Source of the DNA: a virus
Taxonomy: Duplodnaviria; Caudoviricetes
DNA: 64,000 nt
Reading direction: 5' to 3' (one strand)
IMG/VR virus record: IMGVR_UViG_3300014969_000017
Location: 1 to 64,000 of that record
The position numbers and the translations under genes were made by a program. The notes below the pieces were generated by a model. The model made no database searches, was not told where the DNA came from, and worked only from the letters and a program-made list of their open reading frames with translations. This document shows positions 5,670-64,000 of the stretch, piece by piece. Each line of letters opens with the position of its first letter. Position 1 is the first letter of the stretch.

Positions 5670-5924
5670 TTACCCCACGCCGAAGCGGCGTCGAGTCACC
5701 TTCGTCCCGCTATGTTGTTCGTCGTAGGCTTCGCGTGCCTTCAATTCCGCGTCGAGTCCCAGTGACATGCACGCGGCGTCGAAGTCGAACGCCATCGCCC
5801 GTTCAGAGGCGGACGAATTCGTCGATGTCGGGTCGGATTGGAACCACCACCGGCTTGGCGGCTGGTTGTACTGCTTCCCCATCTGGTAACACAGGAGCAT
5901 CAGGGGTGCTTGCGCCTGTACGAA
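5670..5924 (-). CDS. Tail assembly chaperone extension (gpT-like, +1 frame of upstream gene)
   Basis: Frame is open from the TTT CGT site (5920-5925): FVQAQAPLMLLCYQMGKQYNQPPSRWW...AFDFDAACMSLG. Lies between the chaperone and TMP. Confidence 0.6.
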   Translation of the reverse strand, partial: FVQAQAPLMLLCYQMGKQYNQPPSRWWFQSDPTSTNSSASERAMAFDFDAACMSLGLDAELKAREAYDEQHSGTKVTRRRFGVG

Positions 5925-6327
5925 AGTCCGCCGCCGTCTGCGCCGTCATCAACGGCACAACGGCAGTCTCGCTCCAGATGTGAATCAGTTGCGTGAGCGT
6001 GAGCAGGCCGACCGGGAGGTGATCGGGGTTGCCGTCGTCTTCCAGCACGAGCACCGGCTGGAGCACGACCTTGATCGCGTGCTCGCGCACGACATCGACC
6101 AGTTCGCGGGAGTGCGCTTCACCCAGTGCGGCGAGGCGTTCGGTGGGGGACGCGCCCGGCATCTCGATCATCTTCTGGACCGCGACGAGCAGCGGCATCG
6201 GGATGCGGCCTTCAAAGACCATGACCGTCATGTCCTCGCGGCGTGCGAGCACGTGCTGGCCTTGGCCCATGTCGATTTCAACGACGTGGCGCTCGCGCAT
6301 CGCGCGAGGATTCATGAGTGTAGACAT
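5803..6327 (-). CDS. Tail assembly chaperone (gpG-like)
   Basis: 174 aa, positioned between major tail protein and TMP; overlaps a second frame. Confidence 0.65.
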   Translation of the reverse strand: MSTLMNPRAMRERHVVEIDMGQGQHVLARREDMTVMVFEGRIPMPLLVAVQKMIEMPGASPTERLAALGEAHSRELVDVVREHAIKVVLQPVLVLEDDGNPDHLPVGLLTLTQLIHIWSETAVVPLMTAQTAADFRTGASTPDAPVLPDGEAVQPAAKPVVVPIRPDIDEFVRL

Positions 6328-6384: not shown

Positions 6385-6999
6385 TCAGGCGTAGACGAGG
6401 TCGGCCACCGAGGTCGCCATCCGCAACCGGCGGAGCGCCAGCCCGGTTTCCCACGAGGCGAACGTCAGGACCACGTCCCGCTTGCGGAGCGCCTTCCGCC
6501 GCACCAGCGCCCGTACCGCGCGTCGGTGCGCGGCCGATACCCGGAAGTGCCCCTCCGCCCTTTGGAGCAGCAGGGTGGCGAGCGTGGCCCGTTCCTGCCC
6601 CCACAGCGCGTCGGTCACGGATCGCCAGCGTGCAACCGACGCCGCCGCCCGGCCCAGCGCCTCCGCCGTCAGCGGCGGCTCCCGGTGTCGTCCGACTTTT
6701 GGGCGAGTGCCATTCAGCACGTGCATCAACGCACGCCAGCCTCGGAGCGCCAGCGCCCGGTCCTTCGGAGGTCCGGCCGAGAACCGGGCCGACGCGTTCA
6801 GGTACCGCTTCGCCCAGAGCGCCCCGTTCAGCACGTCGGCCGCGAGATACCCGTCGGTAGGATGCACTTCAAGGAACGCCACCGCGTCGGCGTAGCGCGT
6901 GAGCCGGGTCAGGTGCGCCACAAGGGTCGCGTGCGCCGGGTCGGTCGCGTAATCGACCGGGACCGCGAGCGGCACGCCGCCGCGAAAGATGTAGGCCAC
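6385..6999 (-). CDS. Hypothetical protein
   Basis: 204 aa ORF filling the gap between the tail chaperone and the plus-strand island; no motif recognised. Confidence 0.5.
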   Translation of the reverse strand: MAYIFRGGVPLAVPVDYATDPAHATLVAHLTRLTRYADAVAFLEVHPTDGYLAADVLNGALWAKRYLNASARFSAGPPKDRALALRGWRALMHVLNGTRPKVGRHREPPLTAEALGRAAASVARWRSVTDALWGQERATLATLLLQRAEGHFRVSAAHRRAVRALVRRKALRKRDVVLTFASWETGLALRRLRMATSVADLVYA

Positions 7000-7250: not shown

Positions 7251-7412
7251 ATGACCACGCTGTTGATCATCCTGATCGTGCTGATTCTGCTCGGCGGCGG
7301 CGGCTACGGGTACCGGTCCAACTGGGGTGGTCCGCAGTACGGCGGGTTGCTCGGATTGGTCATCGTGATTCTGTTGATTCTGGTCCTGACCGGCAACCTG
7401 CACCTCCGCTGA
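7251..7412 (+). CDS. Small membrane protein, DUF3309-like (not in ORF track)
   Basis: AAGGA RBS; 53 aa MTTLLIILIVLILLGGGGYGYRSNWGGPQYGGLLGLVIVILLILVLTGNLHLR (TM, Gly loop, TM). Confidence 0.7.
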   Translation: MTTLLIILIVLILLGGGGYGYRSNWGGPQYGGLLGLVIVILLILVLTGNLHLR

Positions 7413-48769: not shown

Positions 48770-49591
48770 TTACATGCACCAGTTCGCGACCGCCACCGGC
48801 TGGTTCGCGATGGGGAGCAGCGTCCGGGTCTGCGCCTCGATCTGGACTTGCTTGAGCGACAGCCCGTGCTTGAACGTGTGCCCGATCTTCTCCTCGACGC
48901 GCACGTACTCCGCGAGCAGTTCGGGGTTGTGGATCCCGGCGAGCACCAGCGCCTCCTTCGGCGCGAAGATGCAGAACGCGCACGAGAGGCGCGGCATCCC
49001 GAGGTCATACGCTTCGTGATGGCGGACGCCCGACGCCTTGATGCGTGCCCAGACTTCCGTCTCCGTCCAGTCGTGAATCGGGAGCCACGTGTCCACGTGG
49101 CGCTTGCTGTTCGACGCCAGCTTGTCGAACGCGAAGGGCACCTTGTGCGCACGCGCCGACGACTCCTGCGCACGCAGCCCGAGGCAGTTCAGGATGCGCA
49201 CCGGGCGCGAGAGGCCCAGTTCCTTCACCAGCTTGGTCAGGAGCTTGTAGACCTGCGCACGCTTGTGGTCCGAGGTGCAGAACCGCGCCTTGTTCGACGG
49301 CCACTTGCCGCGCTCGAACTCGACTTGCGCGAGGAGGTCGCCCTTCGCACGCGTCACGACTTCAAAGCGAGCACCGTAGTGCGCGGCCTGTTCAGCGGCG
49401 AGCGCCTTGACGCCCTGCCACTCGACGCGCCCGAGGTCGCAGTGGACGACCACGAGGGGCTTCACCACGCCTGCGGCGGTCGCCTGTTCGGCCACGCGGT
49501 CGAGCATCGCCTGTGAGTCTTTGCCACCCGAGGAGTTCACGAGAATGATGTCGTAGCTCGCGAGGTCTGGGGTCGTCGTCACCGTCGTCAC
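48770..49591 (-). CDS. PAPS-reductase family (PP-loop) protein
   Basis: SSGGKDS...RFCTSDHK...GLRAQES..R...PIHDWT...YDLGMPRLSCAFC. Confidence 0.88.
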   Translation of the reverse strand: MTTVTTTPDLASYDIILVNSSGGKDSQAMLDRVAEQATAAGVVKPLVVVHCDLGRVEWQGVKALAAEQAAHYGARFEVVTRAKGDLLAQVEFERGKWPSNKARFCTSDHKRAQVYKLLTKLVKELGLSRPVRILNCLGLRAQESSARAHKVPFAFDKLASNSKRHVDTWLPIHDWTETEVWARIKASGVRHHEAYDLGMPRLSCAFCIFAPKEALVLAGIHNPELLAEYVRVEEKIGHTFKHGLSLKQVQIEAQTRTLLPIANQPVAVANWCM

Positions 49592-49749
49592 CGTCGTCGT
49601 CTCCACCGCGTTGGCGGCGGGGGTCCATCCCCCGCCCCCGGCTGTGCCGGGCGGTCGCTGTGCCGCCCGTTCCGTTGGCTGGTCCGCTCAGGTCCAGCCG
49701 CCTCGCTCCCGGTGGCTTGCCGCCACCCGCGCCGTCGTCGTTCATAGAG

Positions 49750-55954: not shown

Positions 55955-56125
55955 CGTCGTCTCCAGTTGGTCAGGGCGGCTGTTGATTCAGCCCCAGTCG
56001 CGACTGCCGCATCCCCTGCCGGTTCAACGGACCCCGTCATCGCAAGAACATCAGCATGAGAATCCCGACACCGATCAGTGCGCCGAACAGGAAGCCAAGC
56101 ACGAGCCGCAGTGCATTCGGTCCGG

Positions 56126-56524
56126 TCATGCGATCAGCATCGTCGGCGGCACCGGGAAGTCCTTCTCGCGATGCCGCCACAGGTGGAGCACGAACGGATG
56201 ATGATTCACGTACACGCTCTGACGCGGATGGTACTGCACGACCGTGTCGTCCGCGCCCCAGAAGTGGTCCTTCACGAAGCACATTTCCTTCCACGTCGGG
56301 ACGCGCATTTTGCCCTGCGCGTTCCGGGCGTGAACGCTGACGTGCTCCCAGCCGCGTGCAGTCTCCGGCACGTCGGGCAGCGTGTTGGTCCCGTCGTCCG
56401 CGATGATCGCCAGCACCCAGCCCGGCACCGGCGACAGGAGCGCGAACGCGCCCCAGCCTGCGCCCGGCGGCGAACTCCACTCGCTGCCGTCCATGACCCG
56501 GCCCTCGTCAGGCGCTCGGAACAC
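56126..56524 (-). CDS. Conserved phage protein (WEHVSV...PTWKEMCFVKDHFW...LHLWR)
   Basis: Recognisable conserved phage motif; function unknown. Confidence 0.7.
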   Translation of the reverse strand: MFRAPDEGRVMDGSEWSSPPGAGWGAFALLSPVPGWVLAIIADDGTNTLPDVPETARGWEHVSVHARNAQGKMRVPTWKEMCFVKDHFWGADDTVVQYHPRQSVYVNHHPFVLHLWRHREKDFPVPPTMLIA

Positions 56525-57122
56525 GTCGCTTCAACTCGGCGTCGATAATGTCTTTCGTCCACGTGTCGCGCACGGCGATGGCATCATGCCGCATCGCGAC
56601 CAGCGCGAGGTCGGATAGCGTCTTCACGATCTCCGGAAAGTCCGGCCCACGACCCGGCGGACCCTTCTCACCCGGCGGTCCGGCGGGACAGCCCTGCGGT
56701 CCCTTACTCGACTCGTCGGGCATTTGCCACCCACAGCTTCGCCGTCTCCAGATACGTCGCCGCCACGTGCAGTGCTCGCACGTCCATCTGGACTTGCGCG
56801 TGTGACGGCAGTCCCTTCATCTGGTTGATCGTGTTCAGGCTCTCCTGCATTTGCGCGAGCAGGGCGTTGAATGCGTCGTCCATCGTCGTCTCCTCCTACT
56901 CCAACCCGTGAATGATCGTCTTGCGCCGCGTCTCGACGTACTCGTAGATCGCGACCTCGTCGTCCGCGTCTTTCCCCTCAATGTCGGTGTCGGCATCGAA
57001 GTACATCCCGCTGTCCTCACCCGCACGCGTGACATACAACCGGGCCGGGAATCGAGGCGTGGCTGGCCGCGCCTTCGCCTTCGATGCCCGGCGAACTCTG
57101 CGCTTCGCCATCGTCACCTCCG

Positions 57123-57854
57123 TTAGTCGTCTAAGTCGATTCGTCGTTGACCCGGCACCGCTGGCACGAGCGGCTCGGGCTTCTTGATGTGCGTCAGCTT
57201 GGCGCGGTACGTCGTGGGCGTGAGTTTCGAGACCACCTTGCCGAGTGCGTCCAGTCCGCCCAGTGCGGCCAGTCCGGGTCCGATTCCATCGATCCCAGAT
57301 GCCGCCTGCGCGGCGGCGATGCCGAGGTCCGAGAACGCCAGCCCAGCCTGCTCAAGCTGCGTGACGACGTGCGAGACATCGACCCCAATGACGCCGTCCA
57401 ACTTCCCGATAACGCCGCCGCCGACACCGCCTCCGGCGCTGTACCCACCGCCGTTGCCGCCGCCAACATACGTGCTGTTGCCGCCCCCGCCGCCGCCCCA
57501 CTCGTTGACGACACTGCCGCCGACCACATGACCTCCGCCTCCGCCTCCACCACCGCCGTACACGTAGTCCGCGTCGGCCGCGAACGCATGCTCGTGACCG
57601 CCCATGATCGGCTTCAGTCCCATCGCACTCTGCACGGTGTCCTCCACCCAGTCCAAGACGCGGCTGGCGATGGCGGCGGAACTTCGCGCGTCCCGGATGT
57701 CCTCGTCGGTGATACTGAGCCGCGCGTTCCGGCCGTCGCGATCTGTCAGCGAAAAGATCGTGCAGCACCGCGTCGGGTCTTCTATTGATTGCAGCGTCCA
57801 GCCCGGTGCGACATCCATCCGCGCCAACGCGTCCATCGCCTGTTTCGAGGTCAT
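57123..57854 (-). CDS. Gly-rich hypothetical protein ending RRIDLDD
   Basis: ATGA coupling with 57851-58150; poly-Gly tracts. Confidence 0.55.
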   Translation of the reverse strand: MTSKQAMDALARMDVAPGWTLQSIEDPTRCCTIFSLTDRDGRNARLSITDEDIRDARSSAAIASRVLDWVEDTVQSAMGLKPIMGGHEHAFAADADYVYGGGGGGGGGHVVGGSVVNEWGGGGGGNSTYVGGGNGGGYSAGGGVGGGVIGKLDGVIGVDVSHVVTQLEQAGLAFSDLGIAAAQAASGIDGIGPGLAALGGLDALGKVVSKLTPTTYRAKLTHIKKPEPLVPAVPGQRRIDLDD

Positions 57855-58150
57855 GACGGCTTGCCTCCCCGGCGCATCTCGGCCTCCAGCCGCTGAAAGA
57901 CGACCCACGCCGCCAGTTCGCGTCGTGTCTGCTCGGTGGGCATCATCATCTGCACTGGCTCTTGCTTGTCCTGCTGCGCTCGGATCCGCACGGCCGCGCA
58001 GGGCATGCACAGCCGGACGGCCTGCGGCGCGTGCGGCCGATACACGATGTCGGTCGCGCAATCGGCACACGCGGCGTGCAGATCATCGAGGAACACGCTC
58101 TGCGTGGCACAGACAAGGATAATCTCATCCTCCGGCTCGGCGCTCCTCAT
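57851..58150 (-). CDS. Cys-rich hypothetical protein
   Basis: CADC...CMPC; starts at the distal end of the array. Confidence 0.5.
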   Translation of the reverse strand: MRSAEPEDEIILVCATQSVFLDDLHAACADCATDIVYRPHAPQAVRLCMPCAAVRIRAQQDKQEPVQMMMPTEQTRRELAAWVVFQRLEAEMRRGGKPS

Positions 58151-58173
58151 CTCTCGGTCCACTGCTCTACCTC

Positions 58174-59020
58174 GGCTCGCTCTCAAGGCTTGGTCCGCTC
58201 ACGGGACATGGCTCGCTCTTGGCTTTCGGTGCGCTCACAAGAACGCGGCTCACTCGGACGTGACGGTGCGCTCTCCCTGACTCGGTTCGTTCTTCGTCTT
58301 CGGTCCCCACTTCGTGCTGGACTCGCTCCCATTGCTCGGTACGCTCACTCAAAGATGGCTCGTTCGAGTTGAACGGTACGCTGCCCATCCTCGACTCGAT
58401 CAATATCGACGGTGCCCTCGTTGCCTTCGGCTCGCTCCATCCGCTTTGGTGCGCTCGCCTAACATGGCTCGCTCGATACACTCGGTCCTGTCACTCGAAC
58501 GGCTCGCTCATTGGGTCCGGCGCTCGCGGATGTCACGGCTCGTTCTAAGCGCACGGTGCTCTCCACGTCCTAGACTCACTCCCAGTCACTAGGTGCTGTC
58601 TGCTACTACGGTTCACTCATCATCAACGGTGCGCTCGGCGTAAGTGGCTCGTTCCGATCCGATGGTGCGCTCTGTAACCTCGACTCGCTACCTTCCTGCG
58701 GTGCCCTCAACGACAGTGGCTCGCTCGCCATCATCGGCGCACTCTTTCATGTCCGGCTCGCTCACCGTATACGGTGTCGCCTCTCGGCATACGCGGCTCG
58801 CTCCTTGATCCCCGGTGCTCACTATCATCGCGGCTCGCTCGCTAGGTTCGGTCCTGTCGCATGACTCGACTCGCTCCCGCTTCCGGTCCCCTGTGTCGTC
58901 GCGGCTCGCTCGTGCCGCTCGGTGCGCTCGATGGTGGACGGCTCGCTCACCCAACTCGGTACTCTCAGATGAAGGCGGCTTCGCTCTAACGCCTCGGTCC
59001 CCTCTACCTTTCAGGCTGAC
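58174..59020 (-). ncRNA. TIGR-like dual-repeat array, distal segment (~23 units of ~36 bp)
   Basis: Plus-strand unit G[GA]CTCGCTC-N8-CGGT[GA]CGCTC-N9. Edge repeats at 58174, 58210, 58247, 58284, 58320, 58357, 58393 and onward. Spacers are variable and no frame is kept. Confidence 0.85.
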
Positions 59021-59027
59021 GACCAGC

Positions 59028-59432
59028 TTACAGGCCGTCGCCCTCGGGGGCCGTCGGATACCACTGGCGATTCGCGAGGCCGGGCAGCAGTGCCCAGTGC
59101 GGACTCGCGTCCTTGCCGTGCTCCAGTGCGTTCTTGATGATATGGACCGCCTGATGCGTCGTGTCGTACATCACCGTGTCGGCCGAGACGCGCTGGTTGT
59201 TCGGCAGCATCACCGCCGCGCGTTCCATGCCCTCGGATTGCACGTAGCCCCAGTGCTCGTCCTCCGCCGCCAGTCGCTTCGCCACTTCTGTGAGGAAGGA
59301 CAGGATCGACTCCGGCGTGTTCTGCTCCAGCCAGAGCTTGCCCTGCGGTTCACCCGAGAAGCCCACCACGACCCACGAGTGATCGGGCGTCTGCGGCATG
59401 TGCTCGGTGTCTTCGATGTTCGATTCGGTCAT
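59028..59432 (-). CDS. Hypothetical protein embedded in the array
   Basis: 134 aa, GAGGAG RBS in a spacer position; repeat-free sequence. Confidence 0.7.
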   Translation of the reverse strand: MTESNIEDTEHMPQTPDHSWVVVGFSGEPQGKLWLEQNTPESILSFLTEVAKRLAAEDEHWGYVQSEGMERAAVMLPNNQRVSADTVMYDTTHQAVHIIKNALEHGKDASPHWALLPGLANRQWYPTAPEGDGL

Positions 59433-59442
59433 GGCTCTCCTC

Positions 59443-60494
59443 GGCTCGCTTGTCAGCTTCGTTACGATCTCTAGTGATGGCTACTCGGTAGCTTCGGCAC
59501 TCTAGTCATCAACGGTTCGTTCACCATGCACGGCACGCTTCGTTTCCTCGACTCGCTCGCGTAGTACGGTGCGCGACCACCTCGCGGCTCGCTCCACATC
59601 AACGGTTCTCTCCGGTGTACTGGCTCGCTCTCCGTCAACGGTGCGCTATGAGAACGCGGCTCGCTCGCACCTCACGGTCCTCTACAGGTGCAAGGACTCG
59701 CTCCACTCTCTTGGTTCACTTCGGATCAACGGCTCGCTACTCCACCACGGTCCGCTCGTAAGGGGCGGCTCGCTCTCTGTCAACGGTACGGCCTCTCGAC
59801 TTGGCTCGCTCACTCTCGACGGTGCGCTGATTTGAAGCGACTCGCTCTCGACCCACAGGTTCTCTCGCATGACTCGGCTCACTCGTTCGCGGTGGTGCCC
59901 TCTGCTCCCACGGTTGCTCTGCGCTAACGGCACGCTCACGGTTAGCGGCTCGCTCTAGCCATGCGGTGCGCTCTTTCCAGTTGGCTCGCTCAATCTGCCG
60001 GTACGCTCCTGCGACACGACTCGTTCGGCATACTCGGTGCGCTCGCTCATATTGACTCGTTCGTAACGCTCGGTGCGCTCACGCTACACGACTCGCTCGC
60101 TAGATTCGGTTCACTCACACCAGCCCGGCTCGTTAGAGTTGAACGGTACGCTACCCATCCTCGACTCGCTCGCACAAGACGGAACCCTCCAATGGTGCGG
60201 CTCGCTCTCCATTGCTCGGTGCGCTCAGCCATGCTGGCTCGCTCGGCTGCAACGGTCCTCACGTCGAACTCGACTCGCTCTTGTGCATCGGTTCACTCGC
60301 CGTGGGCGGCTCACTCAATCTGCCGGTACGCTCCTGCGAGACGGTTCGCTCGAAAACGTCGGTACGCTCATCAACAACGGCTCGCTTACTTCCCTCGGTA
60401 CGCTCAGTCGTGCTGGCTCGCTCGACACAACCGGGACTTCGTAGGATACGGCTCGCTCGTTCTGCTCGGGCCACTCGCCGTGCGCTGGCTCCTC
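59443..60494 (-). ncRNA. TIGR-like dual-repeat array, proximal segment (~29 units of ~36 bp)
   Basis: Same two repeats at 36-bp period (e.g. 59622, 59658, 59731, 59767, 59803, 59839); begins at the stop codon of 60495-61322. Confidence 0.88.
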
Positions 60495-61322
60495 TTACTC
60501 GGCCCACGGAAAGTTTGGCACCTGAATCAGATGCGCGTGCCCGAGATGCTCGATGACGTAGGGCTTGGGCGGCATCTCGCCATAGTGCTGGCGGTAGGCG
60601 ACGGTCTGCCAGTGACTGAGGAACAACTTCACGGCGTACCGCTGGGCGCGGAGATGGATGCGTGCCTGCGGCAGCAAGCCCTGCTCGTACGCGGCCTTGG
60701 TCTGCGTGTCGCGCTTCCAGTTCTTCGTCGTCAGCGCCGTCGCGGCCTGCTCGGAGAAGTCGTGATTCGCGTTCTTCGCTTCTTCCTGCGCCTTGCGCTG
60801 GACGTAAATCTTGCCGTAAAAGTCGTCCTTGTGCGCCTGCTGCTTCGTGAAGCTCTCCCCGATGATCCAGCAGAGGCGTTTCAACGCGCCATTCCACGGC
60901 CGCTTCTGCCCTTCCTTCCACACCACCGTCGGATCGAGTCCGGCGAAGCGCCAGATGTGCCCCACCGTCGGAGCCTTCGTGATGTCGATGTGCGCGAGCA
61001 AGCCTGCGCTGATCACCGGGCCGATCCCGATGATGCTCTCCGCCCACTTGCCGACCGGGTTGTTCTGGCTGTACGTGCCGAGGGCGCTCTTGATGTTGCG
61101 CTCCAGCACCGCCGTGTTATCGAACAGCCAGCCGAGTAACTGGTGCGGCTCGCCAGCCTCCTCCAGCGTGCGTGCCTGATGCGCCGCGCGAATGCGGTCG
61201 CGTTGCATGATGTAGTAAGCATCAACTAAAAATCTGGCCTCCGTCGCGGTCAGCGTCTTCGCGGCATTCTTCAGATCGCGATTCAATTTAACAATCGGTG
61301 CCAGATCGTCTAGTTCTTCCAT
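60495..61322 (-). CDS. tasA: TasA-like protein (IS110/Nop-related RNA-binding, no nuclease domain)
   Basis: 275 aa: coiled coil (YYIMQRDRIRAAHQ), then SIIGIGPVISAGLLAHID...IWRFAGLDP...WNGALKRLCWIIGESF...HLRAQRYAVKLFLSH. No DEDD RuvC domain; abuts the array. Confidence 0.82.
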   Translation of the reverse strand: MEELDDLAPIVKLNRDLKNAAKTLTATEARFLVDAYYIMQRDRIRAAHQARTLEEAGEPHQLLGWLFDNTAVLERNIKSALGTYSQNNPVGKWAESIIGIGPVISAGLLAHIDITKAPTVGHIWRFAGLDPTVVWKEGQKRPWNGALKRLCWIIGESFTKQQAHKDDFYGKIYVQRKAQEEAKNANHDFSEQAATALTTKNWKRDTQTKAAYEQGLLPQARIHLRAQRYAVKLFLSHWQTVAYRQHYGEMPPKPYVIEHLGHAHLIQVPNFPWAE

Positions 61323-61837
61323 GTCCGCCCCGCGCGAATGGCGTTGATCGCATGACGCGACACGCCGAATTCTTTCCCGAGAGCCGCCGCATTCTCCGTC
61401 GGTCGGAGGCGAATCTGCTCTACCTGTTCCAGCGTCAACTTCACCATCGGATGCGCCTCGCCACGAGGCACAAGCTCCGGATGCTTCCGCGCCGGATGGT
61501 CATCGCCATAGAGATGCCCGTGCCGATGGCGACCCTTCGCGAGCTTGTCGTCGGTGTTGGCTTGGTCGTCCCCAAGGAATAGATGCTTCAACCGGAGACA
61601 CGGCGGGTTGTCGCATTTGTGCAGCACGCCCATGCCATCCGGGATCTCACCGTGCGCGGCCGTCCACACCAGTCGATGCACGGACATCGGGGACTTGAAC
61701 ATCTTGCGTCGTTGAATCAACCCGTAGCCTGCCGTCGTTCGCGCACCGGTCCATTCCAAGCAACCATTCGGTTGCTCGACCGTGCGCGATAAAACCTCAA
61801 GCAGGAGGTCGTTGGCTTGCTCCTCCGTCATCACCAT
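61310..61837 (-). CDS. HNH endonuclease
   Basis: CLEWTGA...GYG...HRLVW...VLHKCDNPPCLRLKHLFLG...N; C-terminal helical tail; overlaps the tasA start by 13 nt. Confidence 0.85.
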   Translation of the reverse strand: MVMTEEQANDLLLEVLSRTVEQPNGCLEWTGARTTAGYGLIQRRKMFKSPMSVHRLVWTAAHGEIPDGMGVLHKCDNPPCLRLKHLFLGDDQANTDDKLAKGRHRHGHLYGDDHPARKHPELVPRGEAHPMVKLTLEQVEQIRLRPTENAAALGKEFGVSRHAINAIRAGRTWKN

Positions 61838-61860
61838 CGTCGTCTCCGTCTCCGTAGGGA

Positions 61861-61887
61861 TTCTACCGGGCACGAGGCCCGGTAGAA
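61861..61887. promoter_or_regulatory. Perfect 11-bp inverted repeat overlapping a TAGAAT -10-like box
   Basis: TTCTACCGGGC-acgag-GCCCGGTAGAA between the PEP-CTERM and HNH genes. Confidence 0.45.
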
Positions 61888-61900
61888 CTCAGTCAGTCTC

Positions 61901-62626
61901 TCATGCCTGCCTGCGGCTCCGGCGAATCTTCGCCGCGATTCCGGCAAGGCCGCTGCCCATCAGAATCAGCGAGGCCGGTTCCGGGACCGGTGGCGCATCC
62001 GTGGGCGTCGGCGTGCAGCCGGGGCAGTCCCCGACACCCGGCGACCCGTCTGCGATCCACGTGCTCAACGCCCCCGTCGGCCCGATGCCCTGCAAGTGCG
62101 CCGCTGCGAAGAACGGCCCGTTGCCACCACCCGGTGCGGCGAGGAAGTTGAACGAGGCAGCGGTCAAGGTGCCCGTGATCAGATCGAGATCGATGACCAT
62201 CGAGTCGCCCTGTCCGAATCGCGCTCCGGCGCTCTCGTTGAAGTTGAACAGGAGGTCATAGATGCCGTCACCATCGGCTTGGCAACAATCCACGCCACGC
62301 GTGATGCCCGTGTAGGCTCCCGACGAATCCGAGATCAGGTTCGTCGTCACCTGTGTGGGGTTCAGCAGCGGATTCAGATTGAGATAGATCCCGCTGATGA
62401 ATTCCTGCATCGACAGGTCCAGCGCCGTGAACGTGAGGCGCACGTCGAACCCGGCTCCGGCGGTCGCGTCATTCGCGTTGACGCGCAACCACGGGGCTGG
62501 ATCATTCGGCAGCGTCCCGTTACTGAACTGCGTCGAGTAATCGAACGTGATGGAACTGGCTCGCGCCGGTGCGGCCACCAACACGAGCGCCAGACACAGC
62601 GCCACTAAGAACACACATCGCTTCAT
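61901..62626 (-). CDS. PEP-CTERM sorting domain protein
   Basis: Signal peptide MKRCVFLVALCLALVLVAAPARA; C-terminal VPEPASLILMGSGLAGIAAKIRRSRR. Confidence 0.9.
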   Translation of the reverse strand: MKRCVFLVALCLALVLVAAPARASSITFDYSTQFSNGTLPNDPAPWLRVNANDATAGAGFDVRLTFTALDLSMQEFISGIYLNLNPLLNPTQVTTNLISDSSGAYTGITRGVDCCQADGDGIYDLLFNFNESAGARFGQGDSMVIDLDLITGTLTAASFNFLAAPGGGNGPFFAAAHLQGIGPTGALSTWIADGSPGVGDCPGCTPTPTDAPPVPEPASLILMGSGLAGIAAKIRRSRRQA

Positions 62627-62663
62627 CACACGCGCCTCCTGCTGGGGGAAAGGAAGAAAGACC

Positions 62664-63110
62664 CTACGTGTCGGCTTGCTGGAGAAGTTTGAGGGCCGCT
62701 GAAAACTTCGCCACCTTGTCCGCGTCCTGCTGCGCCCGTGCTCGCAACGCCGCCATCTGCTCGCGTGCGCGACGGGTCGCGTCTGCGACTTCGTCGGCCA
62801 GCGCGTCAAGGGTATCAAGGGTCGCCTCCAGCGCGGCAAGGCCGGACGCAAAATCTTCGGGCAAGGGGGACTGAGGGTCGGGCACGAACCGCGCGTCTTC
62901 TGGCAGCACCAGCACACGGTCCCGGAGCCGGTCCCCGTCTGACCGCTCGCGACGATGCGGCCGGTTCGCCGCCGCCTTCTCCATCGCCGCCTTAATCTCC
63001 GCACGCTCGACCATCGCTCCTCCGGCATCGGGCTGTGTCGCCGTCGGAAACGTGCGGCTATCGACTACGTCCTCGACTTCGCGGCCTTTGAGATCGCGGA
63101 AAGATGGCAT
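62664..63110 (-). CDS. Hypothetical coiled-coil protein
   Basis: MPSFRDLKG..., helical C-terminus. Confidence 0.5.
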   Translation of the reverse strand: MPSFRDLKGREVEDVVDSRTFPTATQPDAGGAMVERAEIKAAMEKAAANRPHRRERSDGDRLRDRVLVLPEDARFVPDPQSPLPEDFASGLAALEATLDTLDALADEVADATRRAREQMAALRARAQQDADKVAKFSAALKLLQQADT

Positions 63111-63317
63111 CGCCCACTCCCAGAGTTGTCTAAGTCGCACGCCACACGGCGAAGCCGCGCCGGTCGATGGTCAACCGAAGTACCGTCGCGCACGTCCCGC
63201 ACTGGATGGCCGTCCACGCCGTCGCGTACCGCAGACGAGCGCCGCAGTCGCACACCAGTTCGGGCAGGCGCGGCGCATCGTCTGATGACGGAGATGGGGG
63301 CGTGTCCAGATCGTCCA

Positions 63318-63824
63318 TCAATCTTCACGCTGAATGAGATCGCGAGCGTCCCGCAAGACCTTGCTCGGCACGAACCACGCCGCGTCCCGGTTGTGCGGCG
63401 CTTTCTTCCACGACTCCTGCTTTTTCGCTTCGTGACCGAAGAACCAGCCGCGAAGCTGGAACGACGGCGCTCGACCGGTGACGAGCACCCAGACCGCAGC
63501 GTCCGAGTCCTCCACGCGCACGATGAGCGACGACGCATCCGGCACCGCGTGTCGTACCTGAATGCCGTACTGCACGTCGTCGCCTTTGTGATAGGTATCG
63601 ACGCTGCCACACCAGTACCGATTCGTCGCCTTCGCCACCGCCATCTCCGCGATGGCGGCTTCGATGTCGATGTCCCACGCCCCGAGTCCTTGGTTCCCCT
63701 CGGCGTCCGCTGCCGCGCCGTTCAATCCCTTCTTGCGACTATGGATGCGGCGGCGCACACCGACGCTCGCGGCCTGCTCAACTTCGTCCCATGTCAGGTT
63801 CGACGGCAGCGGCTTAGGAGCCAT
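63318..63824 (-). CDS. Hypothetical protein, possible PD-(D/E)xK-like fold
   Basis: AAIAEMAVAK...GDDVQYGIQVR...VWVLV...LRGW. Confidence 0.5.
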   Translation of the reverse strand: MAPKPLPSNLTWDEVEQAASVGVRRRIHSRKKGLNGAAADAEGNQGLGAWDIDIEAAIAEMAVAKATNRYWCGSVDTYHKGDDVQYGIQVRHAVPDASSLIVRVEDSDAAVWVLVTGRAPSFQLRGWFFGHEAKKQESWKKAPHNRDAAWFVPSKVLRDARDLIQRED

Positions 63825-64000
63825 GTACCACTTCCGGGAACCCGAGATGCGGAAGGTCGCGGCCGCGAATCCCGTGGAGCGCGATGAAGTGCCGCTGCAC
63901 CAGCCACGTCCGCCCCTCGCAGGAGATGGGCACAGACGGCCCCTGCTGCGCGACGAGCGCCTCGACGTATCGCTGCGTCTCCGGGTTGGAGTAGTGCAAC

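Follow-up and report, generated by a model that had tools for sequence, protein, structure and literature searches.

The window analysed here, 64,000 nucleotides (nt) of viral DNA corresponding to positions 1 to 64,000 of IMG/VR record IMGVR_UViG_3300014969_000017, carries on its minus strand a tasA gene encoding a nuclease-free Nop-domain protein and, starting one base after its stop codon, an array of two alternating short repeats. We propose that this locus is very probably a TIGR-TasA system of the dual-repeat type that works by the general mechanism set out below. The assignment is based on the presence of every family feature that a sequence can reveal, namely Tas homology in both sequence and fold, the absence of a nuclease domain, a dual-repeat array of ~36-nt units, box C/D-like repeat ends, a covarying base pair in the edge repeat, a tyrosine/histidine (Y/H) dyad and a phage context; only a terminator, which is typical of such arrays, was not observed, and the features that mark IS110 transposases and TasH nucleases were likewise absent. 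TIGR-TasA is an already known kind of system, and the locus does not add a new one.

The array spans positions 58137-60494 and consists of 52 units of ~36 nt (29 + 23). Each unit comprises an edge repeat (GAGCGAGCCG), a spacer of ~8 nt (spacer A), a loop repeat (GAGNGNACCG) and a second spacer of ~8 nt (spacer B), with the two 10-nt repeats alternating on the minus strand in 18-nt steps between 60494 and about 58137. Exact copies of the edge motif GAGCGAGYC number 31 in the window, and 30 of these fall in the minus-strand interval 58174-60458; 100 dinucleotide shuffles averaged 3.6 copies and peaked at 7. For the loop motif GAGNGNACC the corresponding values are 37 copies, 29 of them in the minus-strand interval 58192-60405, against a shuffle average of 12.5 and a peak of 27. 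These counts, far above the shuffle means, bear out a sequence-only reading of the same DNA, which had described two degenerate repeats alternating at ~18 bp and had estimated ~52 units (23 + 29) of mostly 35-37 bp. Our parse yields lengths of 36 nt for 31 units, 37 nt for 12 and 35 nt for 7, with one unit each of 38 and 40 nt; spacer A measures exactly 8 nt in 39/52 units and spacer B in 44/52.

The 29 units of array 1 (59442..60494, minus strand) lie upstream and the 23 units of array 2 (58137..59004, minus strand) downstream of an open reading frame (ORF) at 59028-59432, termed orf134. The first edge of array 1, at 60494, is degenerate and directly follows the tas stop codon TAA (60495-60497), just as had been noted for the 275-residue gene; its last edge (59451-59442) continues into the ribosome-binding site (AGGAG) and the ATG of orf134. 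Array 2 opens with a lone loop-like repeat at 59004, followed by units with edges from 58986 to 58182, the last of which is degenerate and overlaps with the beginning of the following gene. Within this last unit begins a short ORF (57851-58186, minus strand) that contains paired cysteines (C..C..C..C) and is 100% identical in the related locus L023. A loose parser found no second array in the whole 72.8-kb contig from which the window is taken, and no Rfam family matched positions 57500-62000 at E <= 1. Tandem Repeats Finder returned only a 2.8-copy fragment, because the array is too degenerate.

The repeat region is non-coding, since each array holds 9-19 stop codons in each of the three minus-strand frames, the lengths of 21/52 units are not multiples of three and thus break the frame, and the G+C content at third codon positions (GC3) of array-internal ORFs (0.64-0.72) is low compared with that of tas and orf134 (0.83-0.87). 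A translated repeat protein is therefore not supported, in keeping with the earlier remark that the array lacks a conserved reading frame. Even though ORFs of up to 104 residues occur within the arrays and many repeats are degenerate, as expected if the region were coding or a decayed, non-functional relic, we consider either explanation extremely unlikely. Besides the stop codons and frame-breaking units, shared units in related loci are reordered while the linkage between spacer A and spacer B holds, the catalytic dyad of TasA is kept, and the protein is conserved across thousands of homologues.

The repeats themselves display the organization of a TIGR array. Edge and loop share a GAG start and a CCG end, representing the box D and box C ends, and such shared ends have been described for binding by a symmetric dimer (Faure et al., PMC12045711). 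Most positions of the edge repeat are well conserved (for example, A2 in 52/52 and C9 in 49/52 copies). In the loop repeat, G5 (51/52), C8 (51/52) and C9 (52/52) are constant or nearly so and positions 4 and 6 are free to vary, a pattern that resembles the tetraloop-like linker between box D and box C reported in the same work. Positions 4 and 7 are able to pair in 46/52 edges of the window, compared with 8/52 loops. Most related loci have the same repeat logic on the downstream or the upstream side of tas; overall, a rough parser scores 67% of 1266 edges and 31% of 1256 loops as pairable at these positions. This pair is C-G in most arrays and U-A in others, such as the relative L015 (16/18), and edges and loops end in the same base, either G or A; mixed arrays were not found among the relatives. 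Both covariations, of the repeat ends and of the edge base pair, match those described by Faure et al. (PMC12045711).

The tasA gene (60495..61322, minus strand) encodes a Tas protein of 275 residues composed of N-terminal coiled-coil helices, a Nop domain and a C-terminal hairpin bearing Y255 and H262. In agreement with the earlier description of an IS110 C-terminal/Nop-like core devoid of a DEDD domain, the protein contains the motifs GIGP, FAGLDP and WNGALK, and its sole Pfam match at E < 0.01 is the IS110 C-terminal family Transposase_20 (residues 95-133, E 3.3e-4, at threshold); neither a DEDD domain nor any nuclease domain exceeded the Pfam cut-off. In the PHROGs database the protein matches phrog_4285, 'transposase' (E 1.1e-47), a label that looks like an old annotation of the Tas family. 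Identification as an IS110 transposase was rejected, as the N-terminus is a helical coiled coil and only the C-terminal Transposase_20 was matched.

Residues 1-86 are helical, and the remainder of the protein aligns with the Nop part of TasR and TasH. A phmmer search of the sequences in the PDB returned TasR (9mty_A, E 2.7e-14) as the best match and also retrieved SpTasH (E 1.6e-7). The AlphaFold2 model, built with 33 homologues, has a predicted local distance difference test score (pLDDT) of 86.6 and a predicted template modelling score (pTM) of 0.84. When it was compared with the PDB by Foldseek, the top ten matches were without exception chains of TasH or TasR (E 1.9e-7 to 4.6e-6, query-normalized template modelling score (TMq) 0.55-0.67), followed in the next ranks by the IS110-family recombinases ISCro4 and IS621 (E 6e-3 to 3e-2). 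Comparisons by hidden Markov models and by AlphaFold thus place TasR and TasH closest in both sequence and fold, which upholds the TasA identity put forward from the sequence. The exact sequence of P0001, a protein sharing 93% identity with the window TasA, appears in supplementary file 3 of the work by Faure et al. (PMC12045711); the window's own TasA sequence was not found in the portion of that file compared. The Tas family comprises 4850 proteins at E <= 1e-3 among 6213 candidates, and its members are distributed over viral contigs and over the genomes of many phyla.

Tyr255 and His262 of TasA align with Y289 and H296 of SpTasH (phmmer alignment, counted back from its end), which have been named as the catalytic residues of pre-tigRNA maturation (PMC13421893). 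Among 33 aligned homologues His262 is invariant and Tyr255 is at least 90% conserved, and the AlphaFold2 model places the dyad on a beta-hairpin (residues 256-265). According to Xu et al. (2026, preprint 10.64898/2026.09.09.750476), this dyad is kept in dual-repeat Tas proteins and absent from stem-loop Tas proteins. A two-copy prediction of TasA gave a dimer score of 0.53, compared with 0.01 for the best of three controls, and passed a mark that was reached by 20/30 solved pairs and by 1/23 single chains. At least 80% of contacts are shared between runs, with a pLDDT of at least 79 for the partner and an interface formed by residues 13-80. TasA is accordingly predicted to form a symmetric dimer through its N-terminal helices; this pass may reflect only the likeness to already solved Tas dimers.

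Directly upstream of tas, an HNH_3 endonuclease gene (HNH187; 61310..61873, minus strand; Pfam HNH_3, E 1e-12) overlaps the tas start by 13 nt. Its location upstream of the Nop part, like that of the HNH domain in TasH, together with the common strand and the overlap, would be compatible with a split TasH in which the two proteins form a two-piece RNA-guided nuclease that cuts its targets. This arrangement is very unlikely, however. The closest relatives, L001 and L002/L023, lack the gene, and their tas is abutted by a PEP-CTERM gene; L023 instead carries a different HNH_3 gene (5740-6321, plus strand) downstream of tas, between tas and its array. In addition, HNH187 matched no PDB sequence at E <= 0.01, not even that of TasH, the PHROG families that match it best are those of free-standing phage HNH endonucleases, and weak matches to it occur in just 3/101 loci. 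TasH was rejected as the identity of the locus, the adjacent HNH gene being neither fused nor constant. The GC3 of HNH187 is 0.73, compared with 0.83 for tas. We judge HNH187 and the HNH_3 gene of L023 to be mobile homing endonucleases rather than Tas partners. The HNH_3 genes of the window and of L023 differ and reside on opposite sides of tas, the flanks being 98% identical apart from this; tas appears to be a hot spot at which endonuclease genes insert.

Among the characterized systems, FpTasA from Flavonifractor plautii (Faure et al. 2025, PMC12045711) and MbTasA (Xu et al. 2026) are the closest to the window locus. As described there, both feature a solo Nop-domain Tas adjoining an alternating edge/loop array with two short spacers per ~36-nt unit, and a phage setting. 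The window locus differs from them in having 52 units that a protein gene divides into two blocks, spacers of 8 nt rather than 9 nt, and a box C of CCG rather than CCA. SpTasH of Salicola phage CGphi29 (PDB 9W03, 9W04, 21KL; PMC13421893), likewise a phage dual-repeat system, uses 8-bp heteroduplexes equivalent to 16 nt of guide in the published account and, with its aligned Y289/H296 dyad, is the best structural match; in contrast to the window protein, TasH possesses a fused N-terminal HNH nuclease and cuts DNA. TaTasR (PDB 9MTY, Faure et al. 2025), the best sequence match, shares the Nop fold, the coiled-coil dimer, the box D/box C end logic and the extra edge base pair, whereas it differs from the window locus by an N-terminal RuvC nuclease, by spacers of 9 nt and by UG...CCA boxes. 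The bridge-RNA recombinases IS621 and ISCro4 of the IS110 family have a similar C-terminal RNA-binding Nop-like domain (Pfam Transposase_20, Foldseek), but the window protein is devoid of their DEDD/RuvC catalytic domain and adjoins a tandem guide array instead of a single bridge RNA.

On the basis of these similarities, the following mechanism can be envisaged. A minus-strand operon would be transcribed through tas, array 1, orf134 and array 2, and TasA would dimerize via its N-terminal coiled coil. Each Nop domain would bind one edge and one loop repeat at their GAG (box D) and CCG (box C) ends, and the C-terminal Y255/H262 loop would cut within the edge repeats, giving rise to ~52 tigRNAs of ~36 nt with two 8-nt spacers each. 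Each ribonucleoprotein (RNP) could then unwind a site of ~16 bp independently of a protospacer-adjacent motif (PAM), spacer A annealing to one DNA strand and spacer B to the other. Lacking a nuclease, the RNP would stay on the DNA and thereby block transcription or replication. We infer transcription, processing, DNA binding and repression by this locus purely from homology to FpTasA, MbTasA, SpTasH and TaTasR; in the report by Xu et al. (preprint 10.64898/2026.09.09.750476), MbTasA binds DNA and represses genes in Escherichia coli, with which the suggestion of the sequence-only reading, that ~50 guides might silence genes of the host or of competitors, would agree.

Several observations weigh against this assignment and its mechanism. 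Many repeats are degenerate, several loops deviating at two or more of their 10 positions, and some units may therefore be dead. A search of the minus strand from 57000 to 64000 revealed neither a sigma-70-like promoter nor an intrinsic terminator. A rho-independent terminator at the array end is described by Faure et al. (PMC12045711) as typical of TIGR arrays, not as defining, and both arrays are embedded between same-strand genes. The repeat statistics across loci were obtained with a loose parser whose scan also takes in coding DNA, and the percentages are rough. Furthermore, the spacers yielded no target. With the arrays masked, the 72,794-bp contig has no bipartite site at up to 1 mismatch. 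Among 746 kb of DNA (the contig and 101 related loci), a search with up to 1 mismatch and gaps of 0-2 nt gave no target signal, with 3 matches in the physical geometries (rc(spA)+spB and spB+rc(spA), where sp denotes a spacer and rc the reverse complement) compared with 6 in the unphysical controls; two of the three physical matches are one sequence present twice. The pairing of one spacer with the reverse complement of the other, from which the sequence-only reading had expected to identify targets, hence found nothing beyond controls in the contig or the 746 kb.

These searches bear on what the guides recognize. If they served self-regulation, the guides would target the phage's own genome and time gene expression or replication, and regulation of the viral life cycle is indeed listed as an option by Xu et al. 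(preprint 10.64898/2026.09.09.750476). The contig, one piece of 72,794 bp with a GC content of 65.5%, is also probably incomplete, because it shows no end overlap and close Tas relatives reside on viral contigs of 111-126 kb. We nevertheless regard self-targeting as improbable. Apart from the lack of sites at up to 1 mismatch, allowing 2 mismatches produced only 4 and 6 sites in the two physical geometries, compared with 2, 1 and 1 in the control geometries. Moreover, the spacers have a GC content of 50.8%, which differs from the 65.5% of the contig (z = -9) and from the 64.5% of crudely defined intergenic DNA. Being richer in AT than the contig, the spacers are not a sample of the phage's own DNA. 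Targets most likely lie outside these 72.8 kb, in host DNA, in competitor elements or in the missing part of the phage genome, and we lean towards non-self DNA as their source.

With regard to spacer composition, the base that opens a spacer after box C is seldom C or G (10/52 in spacer B), and relatives exhibit the same A/T preference at spacer positions 1-2. Six of the 104 window spacers start with TTGA, a number attained by none of 5000 within-spacer shuffles. Among 1585 distinct spacers of relatives, 14 start in this way, where ~6.5 are expected from composition, and TTGA is not the top 4-mer. A TTGA start as a promoter -35-like rule was thus dropped as a general feature, being enriched in the window array and not in relatives.

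The locus had been described as a large one. TIGR arrays are reported to contain most often 5 to 15 units (Faure et al., PMC12045711), and 52 units are well above this range, yet ordinary for the clade: counted as high-quality spacers with the same loose parser, the window scores 90, and four distinct relatives are larger (133, 123, 103 and 96). The description as a large locus consequently stands with respect to the published usual size but not with respect to its relatives.

Comparison with the closest relatives, L001 and L002/L023, whose Tas proteins are 92-94% identical to that of the window, provides a unit-level view of array turnover. L023 and the window are 98.3-98.7% identical over 1221 + 2306 nt flanking or including parts of the arrays, and the array middles differ. 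Counterparts in L023 exist for 36/52 window units, plus one near match below threshold, and 11/45 L023 units have no window counterpart; among the 21 units seen in L001, counterparts were identified for 5/52 window units. Shared units are reordered, and one is part of array 1 in the window and of array 2 in L023. One unit is duplicated and present in both window arrays. Contigs from other soil and rhizosphere studies (4 DNA runs) contain identical array pieces or the L023-type variant.

Breaks between neighbouring spacers follow the repeat type. A junction was counted if the spacers on both of its sides also occur in another relative. In six ordered comparisons among the window, L023 and L001, which are not mutually independent, junctions were broken at 1/87 loops and 15/67 edges; with each pair of relatives used once, the numbers are 0/44 and 6/32. 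Since the breaks occur at edges and hardly at loops, the heritable module is edge-spacer A-loop-spacer B-edge, and the pattern independently fixes which repeat is the edge. It also fits units that act as separate guides.

Several further differences between these loci were observed. The tas gene (60502-61285) is just 91.5% identical to that of L023, as opposed to 98.3-98.7% for the downstream DNA (within 56001-59847), and judging from these values the locus is mosaic. In L001, a perfect hairpin (6802-6835) directly follows the tas stop codon, and a non-repeat insert of ~70 nt with another hairpin (7326-7396) is located inside the array; neither is present in the window.

The gene that splits the array, orf134 (59028..59432, minus strand), encodes 134 residues and looks like a real gene because of its GC3 of 0.87. 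Its start (AGGAG and ATG) directly follows the last edge of array 1, and among 101 loci it is located next to tas solely in L001, L002 and L023. HMMER identified 19 relatives, most of which have ~200 residues, the distant ones with an extra C-terminal domain. No Pfam or PHROG family matched orf134 or 13 of its relatives, the protein atlas gave no usable match to orf134, its AlphaFold2 model is unusable (pLDDT 43), and scans with two single relatives retrieved no new loci.

Taking turnover and gene order together, we put forward a tentative, and as a whole rather doubtful, proposal. Guide content might change by cassette exchange, with edge-to-edge units being duplicated, transferred from one array to the other, reordered and replaced in genomes otherwise 98% identical without leader-polarized acquisition, and, at the same time, the array transcript might serve as the mRNA leader of orf134, so that processing by TasA would couple guide maturation to orf134 expression.

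The remainder of the sequence concerns the phage and its host. The contig encodes a major head protein (E 8.7e-81), a portal, a protease, a tape measure protein and tail fibres, and by this gene content it belongs to a tailed phage, from soil. Relatives of the major head protein in named genomes are all at or below 32% identity, and relatives of Tas occur in genomes of Acidobacteriota, Gemmatimonadota, Chloroflexota, Proteobacteria and others; from such remote head-protein relatives and the spread of Tas over many phyla, no host can be inferred. The PEP-CTERM gene (61901-62515, minus strand) is conserved immediately upstream of tas in L001 and L023. Its product is a secreted protein that carries the PEP-CTERM sorting motif (Pfam E 2.3e-7), and a phage protein of this type hints at a host with an exosortase system. 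An ORF of 315 residues (57123-58070, minus strand) contains long glycine runs (GGGGGGGGH..GGGGGGN), is 98% identical in L023 and matched no Pfam or PHROG family. At 48770-49606 (minus strand), an auxiliary gene resembles 3'-phosphoadenosine 5'-phosphosulfate (PAPS) reductases (phrog_424, E 4.3e-36).

TIGR-Tas is a young field, first described in 2025, and the natural targets of these systems, their role and the way in which guides are gained are stated as open in the literature. The locus described here represents a well-resolved natural case, with 52 phage guides, AT-rich spacers and soil-metagenome relatives that differ by whole units within 98%-identical flanks; its added value lies in the unit-level view of array turnover and in the gene embedded in the array. 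Cassette exchange, if true, would be the first concrete handle on the gain and loss of TIGR guides, which the literature calls unknown. The locus is thus a reasonable model for guide turnover and, with the host in hand, for what a nuclease-free Tas silences.

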